The notes beneath the pieces were generated by a model. That model had not been told where the DNA came from, ran no database searches, and was given only the letters and a program-made list of their open reading frames with translations. Position numbers and translations under genes: made by a program. From a virus (lineage: Duplodnaviria > Caudoviricetes), in IMG/VR virus record IMGVR_UViG_3300021256_000057, positions 64,001 through 128,000 of that record: DNA of 64,000 nt; one strand, written 5' to 3'. Positions 44-60,672 of this stretch are shown here, in pieces (within the stretch, counting starts at the first letter, position 1; every line of letters begins with the position of its first letter).

Positions 44-289
44 TCAAGCATCATCCTCGGTTTCTACCCAGAATCTATGACTTCTGTCCATTGAATACTG
101 ACGACGTACTGGACTACCATCATCAGTATACTCTATTTCCTTATCGACACGTTCATATGATGTGATTCTTCGACCGTTTGAAGTCCAGTAGCCAGTAGGA
201 CGCATCAAGCATCTTTCTCCAGTATTTCCAATTCTTCCTGAAACAGCCCCAGGTTCACGAACTGCCTTTGAGATAATGTATCGTTTCAT
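44..289 (-). CDS. hypothetical protein with MKRYI leader
   Basis: ORF; likely ATG at 289 giving MKRYIISK, just after the upstream gene's stop. Confidence 0.65.
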   Translation of the reverse strand: MKRYIISKAVREPGAVSGRIGNTGERCLMRPTGYWTSNGRRITSYERVDKEIEYTDDGSPVRRQYSMDRSHRFWVETEDDA

Positions 290-294
290 TGAAA

Positions 295-732
295 TCACCG
301 TTCGTCTTCGATATAGTTCTCCAAGAACAGATGATTGTCAAACACAGAAGTCCAAGTCTTTCTTGACTTTGCGTTCTTCTTTGTTATCTCGATCATCTGC
401 CCATTCAAAAACTGCAAGAATACTGTGCTTGCTCTGTTCGTAGAGTAAAATGCTTGCTCACCATCTGGAAACTCAATGGCGTACCATGTGTCGTTATAGT
501 TCACCTTGTCAGCCATATAATTGATAAGCTGAAATCTGAGGTCAAGAGGATCTGCAAGTCCAGCTTGAAGGTCTATCGGCACTTGAATAAAATCAATGCT
601 ATCAAGCATCTCCTTGATCTCTTGCTTCAGCTCTGTATCTGATTTACGCTTAGAATTATAGTCGAACTCGACACTCTCATCCGGCTCAAGGTCAGAAGCA
701 CTGTATTCAGTTGATCGAATATATCTCTTCAT
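295..732 (-). CDS. acidic hypothetical protein with MKRYIRS leader (candidate internal head protein)
   Basis: 145 aa ORF, SD GGGGTGA, leader shared with other ORFs. Confidence 0.75.
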   Translation of the reverse strand: MKRYIRSTEYSASDLEPDESVEFDYNSKRKSDTELKQEIKEMLDSIDFIQVPIDLQAGLADPLDLRFQLINYMADKVNYNDTWYAIEFPDGEQAFYSTNRASTVFLQFLNGQMIEITKKNAKSRKTWTSVFDNHLFLENYIEDER

Positions 733-749
733 TCATATCACCCCATGGA

Positions 750-1595
750 TTATATCTGCTTCAAACCCATCTCTGCAAGCGTAAGATTGCCACCTTGTCT
801 TTCTGGTGCATTACCGCCAAGGATTCTTTCTACATCATAATCATCCAATAGCTTTGTGACACGGATAGCTCCGGTGATTACCCACGGAACTGTGTCAGGG
901 TTTGGATTTGTACGATACTTGTAATAACCATTCTTAGGTAGTTTTGGAAGTCCTGCTAAAGAGTGCTGATACTTATCAGAGCGATATGTTGAACCATCTG
1001 GGTTTGTTCTCATGTACCCCTGTTCATCCGCCTCCGCCTGATAGTCAACATCCATCACATACTCGCATTCTGCCCAGATAAAGTCATAAGGGAAATATGG
1101 TGCATTATCATTTACGACCTGCACATACTCATTAAGGTCTTTAATATAAAAGACTTTTCCAATGTTTGCCGTCTTTGCATAGCTCTTAATGAATGTGTTA
1201 TAAGTACCAACCTCTTTTGCGATCTCGGTGCTATCATCAACCTCTACAAAGTCCCAACCAAATGACCGATCAAACTGTTTCGCCCTTGGAACATCACCCA
1301 AATGCCAGCCAGGTCTATAAGCAAGATCACCGCCACCAGTAGATTTTACTTTCTTACGCCCTGTCTTCGATAGACCTGCAAACTCTCCCTCTTCTGCATC
1401 AAGCCAAACGCCAACTGGAGTATCCTGACCACCAGGATTTGCAACCATAGGTGGATACAGTTTCCCATTCTTCACACGAAATACTTTATATGCAGTACCC
1501 TTTATGGAATTTGAATAGTCGTTTTCTGACACTTTAGAGAAGATATCATCAGATGCAAACAAACTCCGATATCTTGGTCTAATAAAACGTACCAT
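750..1595 (-). CDS. conserved phage hypothetical protein (LAYRPGWH motif; resembles a domain of large polyvalent proteins)
   Basis: 281 aa ORF, SD GAGGTGA, leader MVRFIRP..LFAS. Confidence 0.7.
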   Translation of the reverse strand: MVRFIRPRYRSLFASDDIFSKVSENDYSNSIKGTAYKVFRVKNGKLYPPMVANPGGQDTPVGVWLDAEEGEFAGLSKTGRKKVKSTGGGDLAYRPGWHLGDVPRAKQFDRSFGWDFVEVDDSTEIAKEVGTYNTFIKSYAKTANIGKVFYIKDLNEYVQVVNDNAPYFPYDFIWAECEYVMDVDYQAEADEQGYMRTNPDGSTYRSDKYQHSLAGLPKLPKNGYYKYRTNPNPDTVPWVITGAIRVTKLLDDYDVERILGGNAPERQGGNLTLAEMGLKQI

Positions 1596-1744
1596 AGAAT
1601 GTCACCTCAAATATAAAAGTGTTAGCTACAATGCGCTACACCCATATATAAGGTTAGAGTATCTACGATATATAACGATTTTAGGTATCAAAGAAAAGCA
1701 GCAAGCCCACAATAGAGCTTGCTACTAATGCCAATGAGAAATCA

Positions 1745-58761: not shown

Positions 58762-59220
58762 ATCGTCAGCTCCTTCTACCTTATTATAACGAGTTGAAAA
58801 AAAGAAATGGTGATAAGCACGTTATATGCCTATCACCATTATATAAGGTTTAATACAAATCACGTTCAGATATAAATCAATGAGGTATTCACATGAGTGC
58901 TCGATCCTATTTTCAAATCTTGATGTGTGCCAATTCTGACACATTCAATTACGTTGTCAACTATTCTATAAATCAGGACAAGGTCCCCCTTGATATGAAT
59001 TGTATTACAAACCCCATAGGAATGCCCATTTCAAGAATACGAATAAGCATGTGCCTGATACCCGCCTGGTAGATCTCTAATATTAGGAGTTCTTCTTATA
59101 ACATCGATTCTTTCTGATAGTTTAGTAAGATTCTCATGTGCTCCAAGTAATTGAAGTATGTCTTTCTAATACAATGAAGTGCATCGAATCTGCATGTACG
59201 AATCTGAATATTGCCTTTTC

Positions 59221-59448
59221 TTACTTGAGTAAATCTTCAATGGAATCACCATACATTTCATATCTCGTTTGGATAGCTTTCATCATATCAGCAGCACTGT
59301 TATATGGGCCAAATGTGAAGTCAGGATCTGCAAGTGCAGCTCTGTATTCTTCTACGGTCATTGGTACAGGATTATTATAAGCCATCCCAAATATCTTTTT
59401 CATCTCTGCGATTTTATCTGCATCTGACATGCCAATGAACTTTTTCAT
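59221..59448 (-). CDS. hypothetical protein
   Basis: SD GGGGGTGG. Confidence 0.55.
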   Translation of the reverse strand: MKKFIGMSDADKIAEMKKIFGMAYNNPVPMTVEEYRAALADPDFTFGPYNSAADMMKAIQTRYEMYGDSIEDLLK

Positions 59449-59466
59449 AAGACCACCCCCATAAAT

Positions 59467-59889
59467 CTACATGTATTTTAGAAGCTCTTTTACTGAAAAC
59501 GGCATCTCATGTTTAGTATCTTCTGGAATCAACTGCGCTATCTCTTCTACTGAGTAACGACAGTTGTTCTTAATGGCCTCAAACATTGCATACTGTATGT
59601 CCTTAACTATTTCACTATGGGAGCTGCACCAATCGTGTACAGTGTGCTTCAGCGAATCAAGAGCAACTATTTCATCATGAGGCCTCTTCTTCCAGGAAAA
59701 AGCTGCATATGCTTTTTGCGCTGTTTTATACCCAAATCCCTGTGCATCGTCAAACACTTCTCCAGTATCGCTATCTATGATGATATATCGATACTCCGTA
59801 TAGAAGTCTTGTGTCTTTTCAAGACGAATGACTTTTACATTCTCAGGTACAGGACGGTTGTATCCAGTATATGGCTTTTTCTTTCTCAT
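59467..59889 (-). CDS. hypothetical protein
   Basis: DDAQGFGYKTAQKAYAA motif; upstream TAGACA-17-TATAAT. Confidence 0.7.
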   Translation of the reverse strand: MRKKKPYTGYNRPVPENVKVIRLEKTQDFYTEYRYIIIDSDTGEVFDDAQGFGYKTAQKAYAAFSWKKRPHDEIVALDSLKHTVHDWCSSHSEIVKDIQYAMFEAIKNNCRYSVEEIAQLIPEDTKHEMPFSVKELLKYM

Positions 59890-60069
59890 AGTGCCTACCC
59901 TCTTAATTATAGCACGATTGATTCACCATGTCTATACACACAATGCACAAATACCACTCGGATAGTTGTGCATTGTGTAACAGTCTATTTTACTCGTAGA
60001 TAGTTCCGCAGAGCGTAAGCTCGGATTTACCAAGCTCGGAGCTGAAGTTATTGTCTGCTGTATATGGCA

Positions 60070-60672
60070 TCAATAGCCGTATCTATCGCGGTCTTCAAGC
60101 TCGTTGATCGTTTGTTCAAGGGCGATTTCTGCTCCCTCATATGCCTCAGAGATGCTCTCATTCCACATATCATCCATCATCTTATCAAATGCATCCTGAT
60201 TGTAATTGAACAGCTCCTTTTCAATGTCGATCTCATGATACAGTTCATCAATAGTACCACAATCGCGTTCTACACGAAGCTGCTCAAGGTAATTGTAAAT
60301 GCTATCATCGTAATCTGCAAACATCTCTACAATATCAGAAGATTCGATGTTATCAAGGTCGGAATAATACTCTTGTCCTCTAGTAGAATAAATGACTATA
60401 CTATCACTATCCTCCCAAGAGTTTCCGCCTGGATTCCAAAATACACTTGTAGTACCATCGGGATACAGATATAGATCCTGCTGAGGTCGTCCATTAGCAT
60501 CCTTCATAAGCGCAATGATATCGTCCTTTAGAGAATCCCACTTATCATAAATCAGCTTGATCCAGAACTGATTATCATGTGCCTCCTCTGATGCGCGGAC
60601 ATACTTACGGTATCTTGTATTCTTAGAAGCAGATACTCGATTTGACTTGTTATTTGAACGATAAATTCTCAT
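60070..60672 (-). CDS. acidic protein with basic leader (VSAS/YVRAS); candidate internal head protein
   Basis: SD AGGAGG; upstream motif at 60714. Confidence 0.75.
   Translation of the reverse strand: MRIYRSNNKSNRVSASKNTRYRKYVRASEEAHDNQFWIKLIYDKWDSLKDDIIALMKDANGRPQQDLYLYPDGTTSVFWNPGGNSWEDSDSIVIYSTRGQEYYSDLDNIESSDIVEMFADYDDSIYNYLEQLRVERDCGTIDELYHEIDIEKELFNYNQDAFDKMMDDMWNESISEAYEGAEIALEQTINELEDRDRYGY

Follow-up and report, generated by a model that had tools for sequence, protein, structure and literature searches.

The tagged gene array

The stretch of viral DNA analysed here (the window, 64,000 nucleotides) comprises bases 64,001–128,000 of the 183,567-bp Caudoviricetes record IMGVR_UViG_3300021256_000057 (41.7% G+C), with nearly all genes on the minus strand. 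Its left end carries an array of open reading frames (ORFs) whose products share a short N-terminal leader, M-[K/V]-R-Y-I-[K/R]-[S/A]-[S/A/N/T], referred to below as the tag. The array occupies positions 1–12,237 of the window and a further 11 kb past its left edge, and a T4-type head module that includes a head-tail adaptor lies directly upstream of it in the direction of transcription. By analogy with phage T4, the tag is probably a portable signal for head loading and cleavage, the counterpart of the T4 capsid-targeting sequence (CTS), serving a prohead protease with herpesvirus-like (V/I)-x-A↓S specificity (arrows mark cleavage sites).

When every start codon of the whole genome was considered, the pattern M-[KV]-R-[YF]-I-[KRI] was found to head 10 ORFs of at least 40 amino acids (aa), against approximately 0.1 expected; the reversed sequence gave none and each of 20 codon-block shuffles gave 0–1. 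The close variants M-K-K-Y-I-K-S-A and M-Y-Y-Y-I-R-S-S bring the total to 12, all of them on the minus strand within a single 23-kb stretch (genome 52,919–76,237) downstream of the capsid and protease genes. Once the first 12 residues were removed, only one pair of cargo proteins was related (BLASTP, E = 2e-6; starts at genome 61788 and 76237). The central observation of the first-pass annotation, that unrelated ORFs begin with near-identical leaders, thus holds at the scale of the genome. Chance or paralogy as the origin of the shared leaders is ruled out by the excess over expectation together with the unrelated cargos, and recent duplication of a 5′ DNA cassette by the codon differences between copies.

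Those differences are found at the Arg, Tyr and Ile codons of the tag (AGA/CGA/CGT/AGG, TAT/TAC, ATT/ATC). Conservation therefore acts at the protein level, and it is the peptide, rather than a DNA cassette, that is under selection. This bears on the proposal that the shared start is an expression cassette, consisting of a ribosome-binding site and A/T-rich first codons, that was spread by recombination and encodes a peptide without function. Every true leader does have a GGAGG- or GGTGAT-type ribosome-binding site 5–9 nt upstream, similar before all tagged genes, the first codons are A/T-rich, and low-GC bacteria commonly place a Lys codon second in their well-expressed genes. However, synonymous codons vary freely and the residues do not, the motif is also found within proteins, at a domain junction, and as part of longer leaders, and the alternation of Glu with Ala/Ser tracks the protease type across phages (see below), which is not expected of a cassette. 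We consider this origin extremely improbable.

The eight N-termini singled out in the first-pass annotation were all found at their minus-strand starts (289, 732, 1595, 7039, 7694, 10427, 12237 and 60672), and only the last was misassigned. The protein starting at 60672 lies among tail genes and has, in place of the tag, a basic N-terminus with V-S-A-S and Y-V-R-A-S; it is possibly a further protease substrate, which is uncertain. The view of the leader as a detachable module was upheld, since the leucine-rich repeat (LRR) paralogue at 8670–9545 lacks the tag though 41% identical to the tagged protein at 9570–10427, and the tag stands on one of the three BspA-type LRR paralogues. Features of the window are listed in Table 1.

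Table 1. Features of the window discussed in the text.
Feature	Position in window	Strand	Remarks
Tagged 72-aa ORF, first 44 bases	1..44 (genome 63826-64044)	-	Leader M-K-R-Y-I-K-A-A; remainder lies before the window
Tagged ORF, 81 aa	44..289	-	Leader M-K-R-Y-I-I-S-K; no match in family search
Tagged ORF, 145 aa	295..732	-	Leader M-K-R-Y-I-R-S-T and second motif Y-S-A-S; no match in family search
Tagged ORF, 281 aa, phrog_30118	750..1595	-	Leader M-V-R-F-I-R-P, then L-F-A-S; core highly conserved
Phosphoribosyltransferase, C-terminal fragment	5295..5528	-	Gene broken by insertion sequence element
IS200/IS605-type insertion	5666..7009	-	TnpB 5666-6808, intact; truncated Y1 transposase 6812-7009
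Ten-residue leader remnant M-K-R-L-I-T-G-G-V-R	7010..7039	-	From the broken tagged phosphoribosyltransferase; fused to transposase remnant
Tagged ORF, 212 aa, SAM-lyase-like	7056..7694	-	Leader M-K-R-Y-I-K-S-S, then I-Y-A-S
Sigma-70-like promoter, 12/12	7735..7763	-	Upstream of SAM-lyase-like gene
Two BspA-type LRR paralogues without tag	7785..8669 and 8670..9545	-	
Tagged BspA-type LRR protein, 285 aa	9570..10427	-	Leader M-V-R-Y-I-R-A-A
Tagged ORF, 182 aa	11689..12237	-	Leader M-V-R-Y-I-K-S-N; paralogue of tagged ORF at genome 61204-61788
Small acidic head-module protein	13470..13805	-	Basic leader ending R-R-V-M-A↓E
Major capsid protein, Gp23 family	15009..16478	-	Pfam Gp23, 5.5e-18
Prohead protease fused to scaffold, 501 aa	16497..18002	-	gp21/S77-like; N-terminus M-K-N-V-K-A-S-S
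200-aa protein, tail region	60070..60672	-	Basic N-terminus with V-S-A-S and Y-V-R-A-S

The head module and its protease

The capsid protein of the head module begins with a propeptide of approximately 80 residues, which varies in sequence but keeps I-T-A-G-type motifs. It contains I-T-A-G twice, V-M-A-N and V-T-A-S and ends in an invariant I-M-G↓A-T-N immediately before the highly conserved mature part. In the protease-scaffold fusion, the first ~165 residues are gp21-like and the remainder is a coiled coil rich in [ILVM]-x-A-S. The small acidic protein keeps its [VI]-x-A↓[ED] site in relatives, while its basic leader varies.

The protease domain matched PHROG 207 ('head maturation protease') at 1.1e-20. 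As a single sequence it scored 26.1 bits against Pfam S77, just under the cut-off of 27, and a single-sequence search of the PDB returned coiled-coil noise only. A profile of 10 protease domains, by comparison, matched the T4 gp21 chain 5JBL with an E-value of 1.7e-6 over 147 positions. His63 and Ser118 are invariant in the 10 sequences and align, with one common offset, with two Ala positions of 5JBL; this offset fits His85 and Ser140, the catalytic residues of gp21. Judged by the profile match and the conserved catalytic His and Ser, the enzyme belongs to the S77 (T4 gp21) family. Pfam and PDB sequence searches with the protease gave no match to Peptidase S21 (assemblin). Phage records matching the domain number 677 and belong for the most part to T4-like cyanophages, vibriophages and coliphages.

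A predicted Ala/Ser cutting motif

The scaffold of the fusion contains 21 occurrences of [ILVM]-x-A (8.9 expected) and six of [ILVM]-x-A-S (0.9 expected), and neither count was reached in any of 2,000 shuffles. The T4 motif [ILVM]-x-E is not enriched (5 vs 5.5 expected), and the AS dipeptide by itself is only marginally so (8 vs 4.4, P = 0.06); it is the hydrophobic-x-A context that stands out. The same Ala-motif pattern was present in all 11 relatives (54–67% capsid identity) and in four further phages found only via the tag. The predicted scaffold and junction sites are V-T-A-S, V-R-A-S, I-I-A-S and I-A-A-S, the last forming part of a nearly invariant I-A-A↓S-T-D that follows the protease domain at the junction with the scaffold.

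The end of the tag, I-[KR]-[SA]↓[SA], has the form hydrophobic-x-small↓small, as do the sites in the scaffold, at the protease-scaffold junction and in the capsid protein. We predict from these sequences that the tag contains the cutting site of the protease, and that this site is of an Ala/Ser type and not of the Glu type of T4. Several tagged proteins carry a second such site 4–8 residues further on (I-Y-A-S, L-F-A-S, Y-S-A-S, I-L-A-S), and other genes at genome 53.9–63.8 kb encode longer basic leaders ending in V-M-A-S, V-T-A-S or I-R-A-S. The genome has a wider set of basic leaders and internal linkers, to which the tag belongs. Among the same genes is that of a 576-aa protein (L001:14103-15833, genome 58103–59833) with a long basic leader, several domains and repeated linkers ending in V-T-A-S or V-N-A-S, which looks like a cargo polyprotein for the same protease.

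A match between the tag and the cutting motif could also mean that the motif is a processing site and nothing more, the proteins reaching the prohead by another route or being structural, with the protease simply trimming an N-terminal peptide. The last four residues of the tag do match the predicted cleavage motif, and the capsid protein, scaffold and small acidic protein all carry such sites without the M-K-R-Y start. On the other hand, tag residues 2–4 (K 94%, R 87%, Y 96%) are conserved as strongly as the site, but no such conservation is seen upstream of internal scaffold sites. It is also unlikely that over 80 unrelated families would need a seven-residue peptide in order to fold or to be kept latent. 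In T4, moreover, the two functions map to different residues of the CTS, targeting to 4 and 7 and processing to 8 and 10 (PMC9026906). Processing without targeting is, on this evidence, unlikely.

Co-variation of leader, protease and scaffold across phages

Close homologues of the 281-aa cargo (phrog_30118) number in the hundreds, and 94 of these share a conserved core with the same starting position in the alignment. The junction before this core is Glu in all 61 homologues with a Glu-type leader ([ILV]-x-E somewhere in residues 1–10, e.g., M-K-L-x-I-K-E), many of which carry an extra domain of 100–220 residues between leader and core, so that leader and junction are two separate sites there. 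It is Ala, Ser or Gly in 10 of the 11 homologues with a leader of the M-x-R-Y-I-x-[SA] type, the eleventh belonging to a third leader class. This class, M-N-L-K-x-L-M-x-R-R-x-V-Q-D-[VA], precedes the core in seven homologues (P0084, P0091, P0093, P0094, P0096, P0099 and P0100), and its last residue, neither Glu nor small, hints at yet another protease specificity. The core itself is 55–85% identical across phages with far more diverged capsid proteins, and its invariant residues include His98, several Tyr and Glu275.

The alternation between a small residue and Glu was found at four homologous positions, namely the cargo junction, the capsid site, the protease-scaffold junction and the N-terminus of the protease. 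The capsid maturation site reads I-M-G↓A-T-N here and A-F-E↓A-T-N in a Glu-type phage, and the protease-scaffold junction I-A-A↓S here and x-x-E↓S in the Glu type. In loci retrieved with these homologues, each phage has its own leader at the head of an array of unrelated genes: L013 has M-K-L-x-I-K-E, L015 has M-I-R-V-I-I-E and L014 has M-K-R-Y-I-K-S, in eleven copies. In the complete Glu-type phage behind L015, the protease starts M-S-I-L-L-T-E, the capsid propeptide ends in the A-F-E↓A-T-N just given, and the scaffold contains no [ILVM]-x-A-S. No capsid gene was found in the Glu-type record behind L013 (G006), which is 58% complete. In the cultured Streptococcus phage vB_SagM-GXN1 (L062, PQ819873.1: 109683–151023), several small genes dispersed between those for capsid, neck and tail proteins also begin with a Glu-type leader, M-R-L-[VI]-[RK]-L-x-E; the 176-kb record of this phage has only 40 annotated features.

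Two variations on these arrangements were also noted. In the Glu-type record G008 (L019:5389-11062), the capsid gene is split into three or more pieces that are separated by GIY-YIG-type homing-endonuclease ORFs, the insertions being probably introns. In a relative with 54% capsid identity (L007:2565-15653), a second leader class, M-x-[KR]-[KR]-F-T-K-Y-P-x-x-Y-[IV]-x-A, heads at least six small genes beside others with M-K-R-Y-I-[KR] leaders.

The protease profile was also run against 1.84 billion representative proteins, giving 5,782 matches, and the best 150 of these, which include 136 protease-scaffold fusions of at least 400 aa, were analysed. In 78 of the 136, Ile or Val directly follows the catalytic Ser, mostly together with Pro at the fourth position after the catalytic His (His+4); the scaffold tails of 76 of these 78 are more enriched for [ILVM]-x-A-[SAGNT] (mean 8.2 vs 2.4 expected) than for [ILVM]-x-E. 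The other 58 have Ser or Thr after the catalytic Ser, as in T4, and mostly Arg at His+4, and all 58 are enriched for [ILVM]-x-E (~18–21 vs 10) and not for the Ala motif. The corresponding protease motifs are G-V-S-S-R-G with H-P-x-D-R in the T4-like Glu type and G-I-S-[IV]-R-G-A-G with H-P-E-D-P here. Residues beside the active site thus switch together with the motif in the enzyme's own scaffold. Such a pattern would be expected if the motif is the substrate site and the residue before the cut (P1) has moved from Glu to a small residue.

The tag could instead be the recognition sequence of a different enzyme or export route, such as a modifying enzyme like those acting on ribosomally synthesised and post-translationally modified peptides, or a secretion signal. 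Many tagged proteins are indeed small and without assigned function. Nevertheless, the clusters contain no maturase-like gene, the sole radical-SAM gene nearby being an NrdG-type activase that adjoins NrdD, and the tag has no hydrophobic core, twin-arginine (Tat) or lipobox features. The last residue of the tag co-varies with the type of head protease and with the capsid and scaffold sites, each of the four complete or large tag-bearing records checked encodes an Ala-type protease, and no partner gene besides the protease was found to follow the tag. A recognition system separate from the head seems very unlikely.

Distribution and cargo of the tag

The tag was searched for in IMG/VR with one narrow DNA pattern, which makes the resulting count a lower bound. 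At least 38 stretches were recovered with 109 tagged ORFs, corresponding to 102 distinct proteins of 45–347 aa in 82 BLASTP clusters. Among the 109 ORFs, residues 1–7 of the tag are conserved at 87–100%, and conservation ends after residue 8. Few of the cargos have Pfam domains, these being LRV, BspA-type LRR, SoxZ, ART-PolyVal, phosphoribosyltransferase and SAM lyase.

The functions of the cargo proteins were backed only in part. The SAM-lyase-like assignment that the first-pass annotation gave to the protein at 7056–7694 is supported by a match to S-AdoMet_lyase (Pfam PF23780) just above the cut-off (32.6 bits against 28; E = 9.1e-8, residues 30–127). The presumed start of a broken phosphoribosyltransferase at 7039 was confirmed: ten leader residues remain on the IS200 remnant, and the C-terminal fragment at 5295–5528 shows 58% identity to the C-terminus of a 262-aa orthologue that is intact and carries the full tag in another phage (L039). 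Most of the N-terminal half of the gene is gone, and the Y1 transposase at 6812–7009 lacks the first ~57 positions of its profile. For the 281-aa cargo, the AlphaFold2 model is confident except for a disordered leader (predicted local distance difference test score 80.6). A Foldseek search with this model found nothing at E up to 0.001. In VIA-align, the weak top matches (Z < 5) were nearly all ADP-ribosyltransferase folds, including Arr (Z 4.6), tankyrase, PARPs, RES, DarT and diphtheria-type toxins.

Two GH25-type endolysin-like genes were also noted in the genome, at window positions 3883–5025 and 54083–56359. The product of the second (758 aa) has extra C-terminal domains and may be a virion-associated lysin; its gene adjoins a tape-measure-like gene. 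Together with the ribosome-binding sites and the LRR types, the endolysin types point to a Firmicute as the probable host.

Proposed role of the tag

In the mechanism we propose, the tag would attach to the core of scaffold and protease while the prohead is being built, probably lying in the groove of the protease like a substrate strand, and cargo would thereby be co-assembled inside the shell. Once activated, the protease would cut the tag after the Ser or Ala at position 7, as well as at second sites such as I-Y-A↓S, and would dice the scaffold at its many V-x-A↓S sites. The mature cargo would remain in the head until, at infection, it exits together with the DNA. In this clade, the protease would have shifted its P1 preference from Glu to a small residue, acquiring the (V/L/I)-x-A↓S specificity of assemblin, with which it shares a fold. 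The first-pass annotation had already likened the leader to the T4 CTS. That comparison has gained a gp23-type capsid protein, a gp21-type protease, a tag ending in the motif of the scaffold and capsid sites, and a last residue that switches with the protease type; encapsidation, removal of the tag and injection are what we infer from it.

A broader claim, on which we are evenly divided, is that a large T4-like clade, wholly uncultured and comprising 78 or more protease clusters at 50% identity, has converted a gp21-type protease from Glu to Ala/Ser, the specificity of assemblin, with a site Y-[IV]-[KR]-[AS]↓S that resembles the assemblin release site. Placed after M-K-R, this site would serve as a universal seven-residue loading tag for more than 80 fast-changing families, likely anti-defence enzymes among them. 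It would be the first non-Glu protease of the gp21 family and a functional bridge between phages and herpesviruses.

Several observations weigh against a head-loading role or against the predicted specificity. Among the 677 phage records matched by the protease domain, identity is 34% at most, and that collection therefore contains no cultured member of the clade. The P1 residue of the leaders is mostly Ser (77 of 109), while that of the scaffold sites is Ala, and one leader has Pro and another Gly at position 7. The loose form of the motif, [hydrophobic]-x-A-[small], is common in proteins generally, and at the N-termini of the region it is only modestly denser than in the rest of the genome; the loose N-terminal scan over all genes, which includes many likely false matches, was not used as evidence. 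The large counts of Ala- and Glu-type fusions are not independent if the split between them was a single ancestral event, as it may have been. Untagged helicase, endolysin and RecU-like genes are interspersed in the tagged cluster. Finally, the SAM-lyase-like gene and the 182-aa gene are each closely preceded, on the minus strand, by a sigma-70-like promoter that has an extended -10 TG (7735–7763, 12/12, and 12258–12286, 11/12, respectively), which suggests transcription by the host polymerase independent of the head operon. With strong promoters of their own, these two genes may be expressed early from the incoming DNA, and pre-packaging of their products would be less needed.

Should the head-loading role hold, the tag would provide a simple sequence rule for listing the head-carried, DNA-delivered proteins of a large group of uncultured gut/rumen-type phages, a class of proteins that is rich in counter-defence functions and otherwise hard to find. 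Foreign proteins could then also be packaged with the help of this compact seven-residue tag, a use to which the T4 CTS has already been put. An Ala/Ser-specific protease would be the first exception to the rule that T4-type head proteases always cut after Glu, with two candidate specificity positions (the one directly after the catalytic Ser, and His+4), and it would tie phage and herpesvirus capsid maturation together by substrate specificity as well as by fold. The cultured phage vB_SagM-GXN1 offers a ready model for virion proteomics.

Comparison with known systems

Literature searches for the tag strings found nothing, and those for CTS-like systems in metagenomes found only work on T4, phiKZ and P1. 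No paper was found on Ala/Ser specificity in gp21-type proteases, a match with assemblin sites, a tag this short or a clade that uses it. The principle is already known from T4; the new elements are a gp21-family protease with apparent Ala/Ser specificity, the match to assemblin sites, the very short tag and the size of the uncultured clade using it.

The T4 CTS starts M-K-x-Y, as does the tag described here. In T4, the 10-residue CTS brings the internal proteins and Alt into the scaffold core and is removed by gp21 at L/I-x-E, foreign proteins fused to it are packaged and injected, and gp21 carries a site near its own N-terminus (PMC9026906, PMC5694885, PMC3012670). The two systems share a short N-terminal peptide on unrelated proteins (IPI, IPII, IPIII and Alt in T4) that ends in a gp21-type cutting motif, here a predicted one. 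They also share a gp23-type capsid protein, a scaffold core and variable cargo, which here may include an ADP-ribosyltransferase-like protein. They differ in that the tag has 7–8 residues, is net basic and has no Glu at the position where T4 leaders are cut, its predicted cut being after Ser or Ala. It heads 12 genes of this one genome and more than 80 families in the clade, compared with a handful in T4, and it also serves as an internal linker in multi-domain proteins.

Glu cleavage is common to all characterised gp21-like proteases, those of T4, phiKZ, 201phi2-1 and SPN3US (PMC9026906, PMC5694885, PMC3012670). The head and ejection propeptides of phiKZ, 201phi2-1 and SPN3US resemble the tagged proteins in being removed from the N-terminus at a short motif, often at several sites, and paralogues can have identical N-termini (PMC5694885). 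However, most of these propeptides exceed 100 residues, the residue before the cut is Glu (S/A-x-E, A-x-E), and no single short tag recurs among them across dozens of families. The Glu-type leader arrays of L013, L015 and vB_SagM-GXN1 (M-R-L-V-R-L-T-E) are organised like the array described here, with clusters of unrelated small genes that share a short leader ending in a protease motif; they differ in that the last residue is Glu and the proteases have T4-like motifs.

The general consensus for assemblin cleavage is (V/L/I)-x-A↓S, and to our knowledge herpesviruses do not use the site as a portable cargo tag. The gp21 protease is homologous to the herpesvirus protease (PMC9026906), and assemblin (pUL26 / pPR) is fused N-terminally to the scaffold (PMC8537868), an order of domains that recurs in the 501-aa ORF described here. 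The best matches of our protease are, by contrast, T4 gp21 and Pfam S77, and not the assemblin family. Pseudorabies virus assemblin cuts at sites of the form hydrophobic-x-A↓S/T, with Y-L-Q-A↓T for release and V-Q-A↓S for maturation (PMC4498786). The predicted sites of the phage resemble these, the tag having Y-I-K-[S/A]↓S and the protease-scaffold junction I-A-A↓S.

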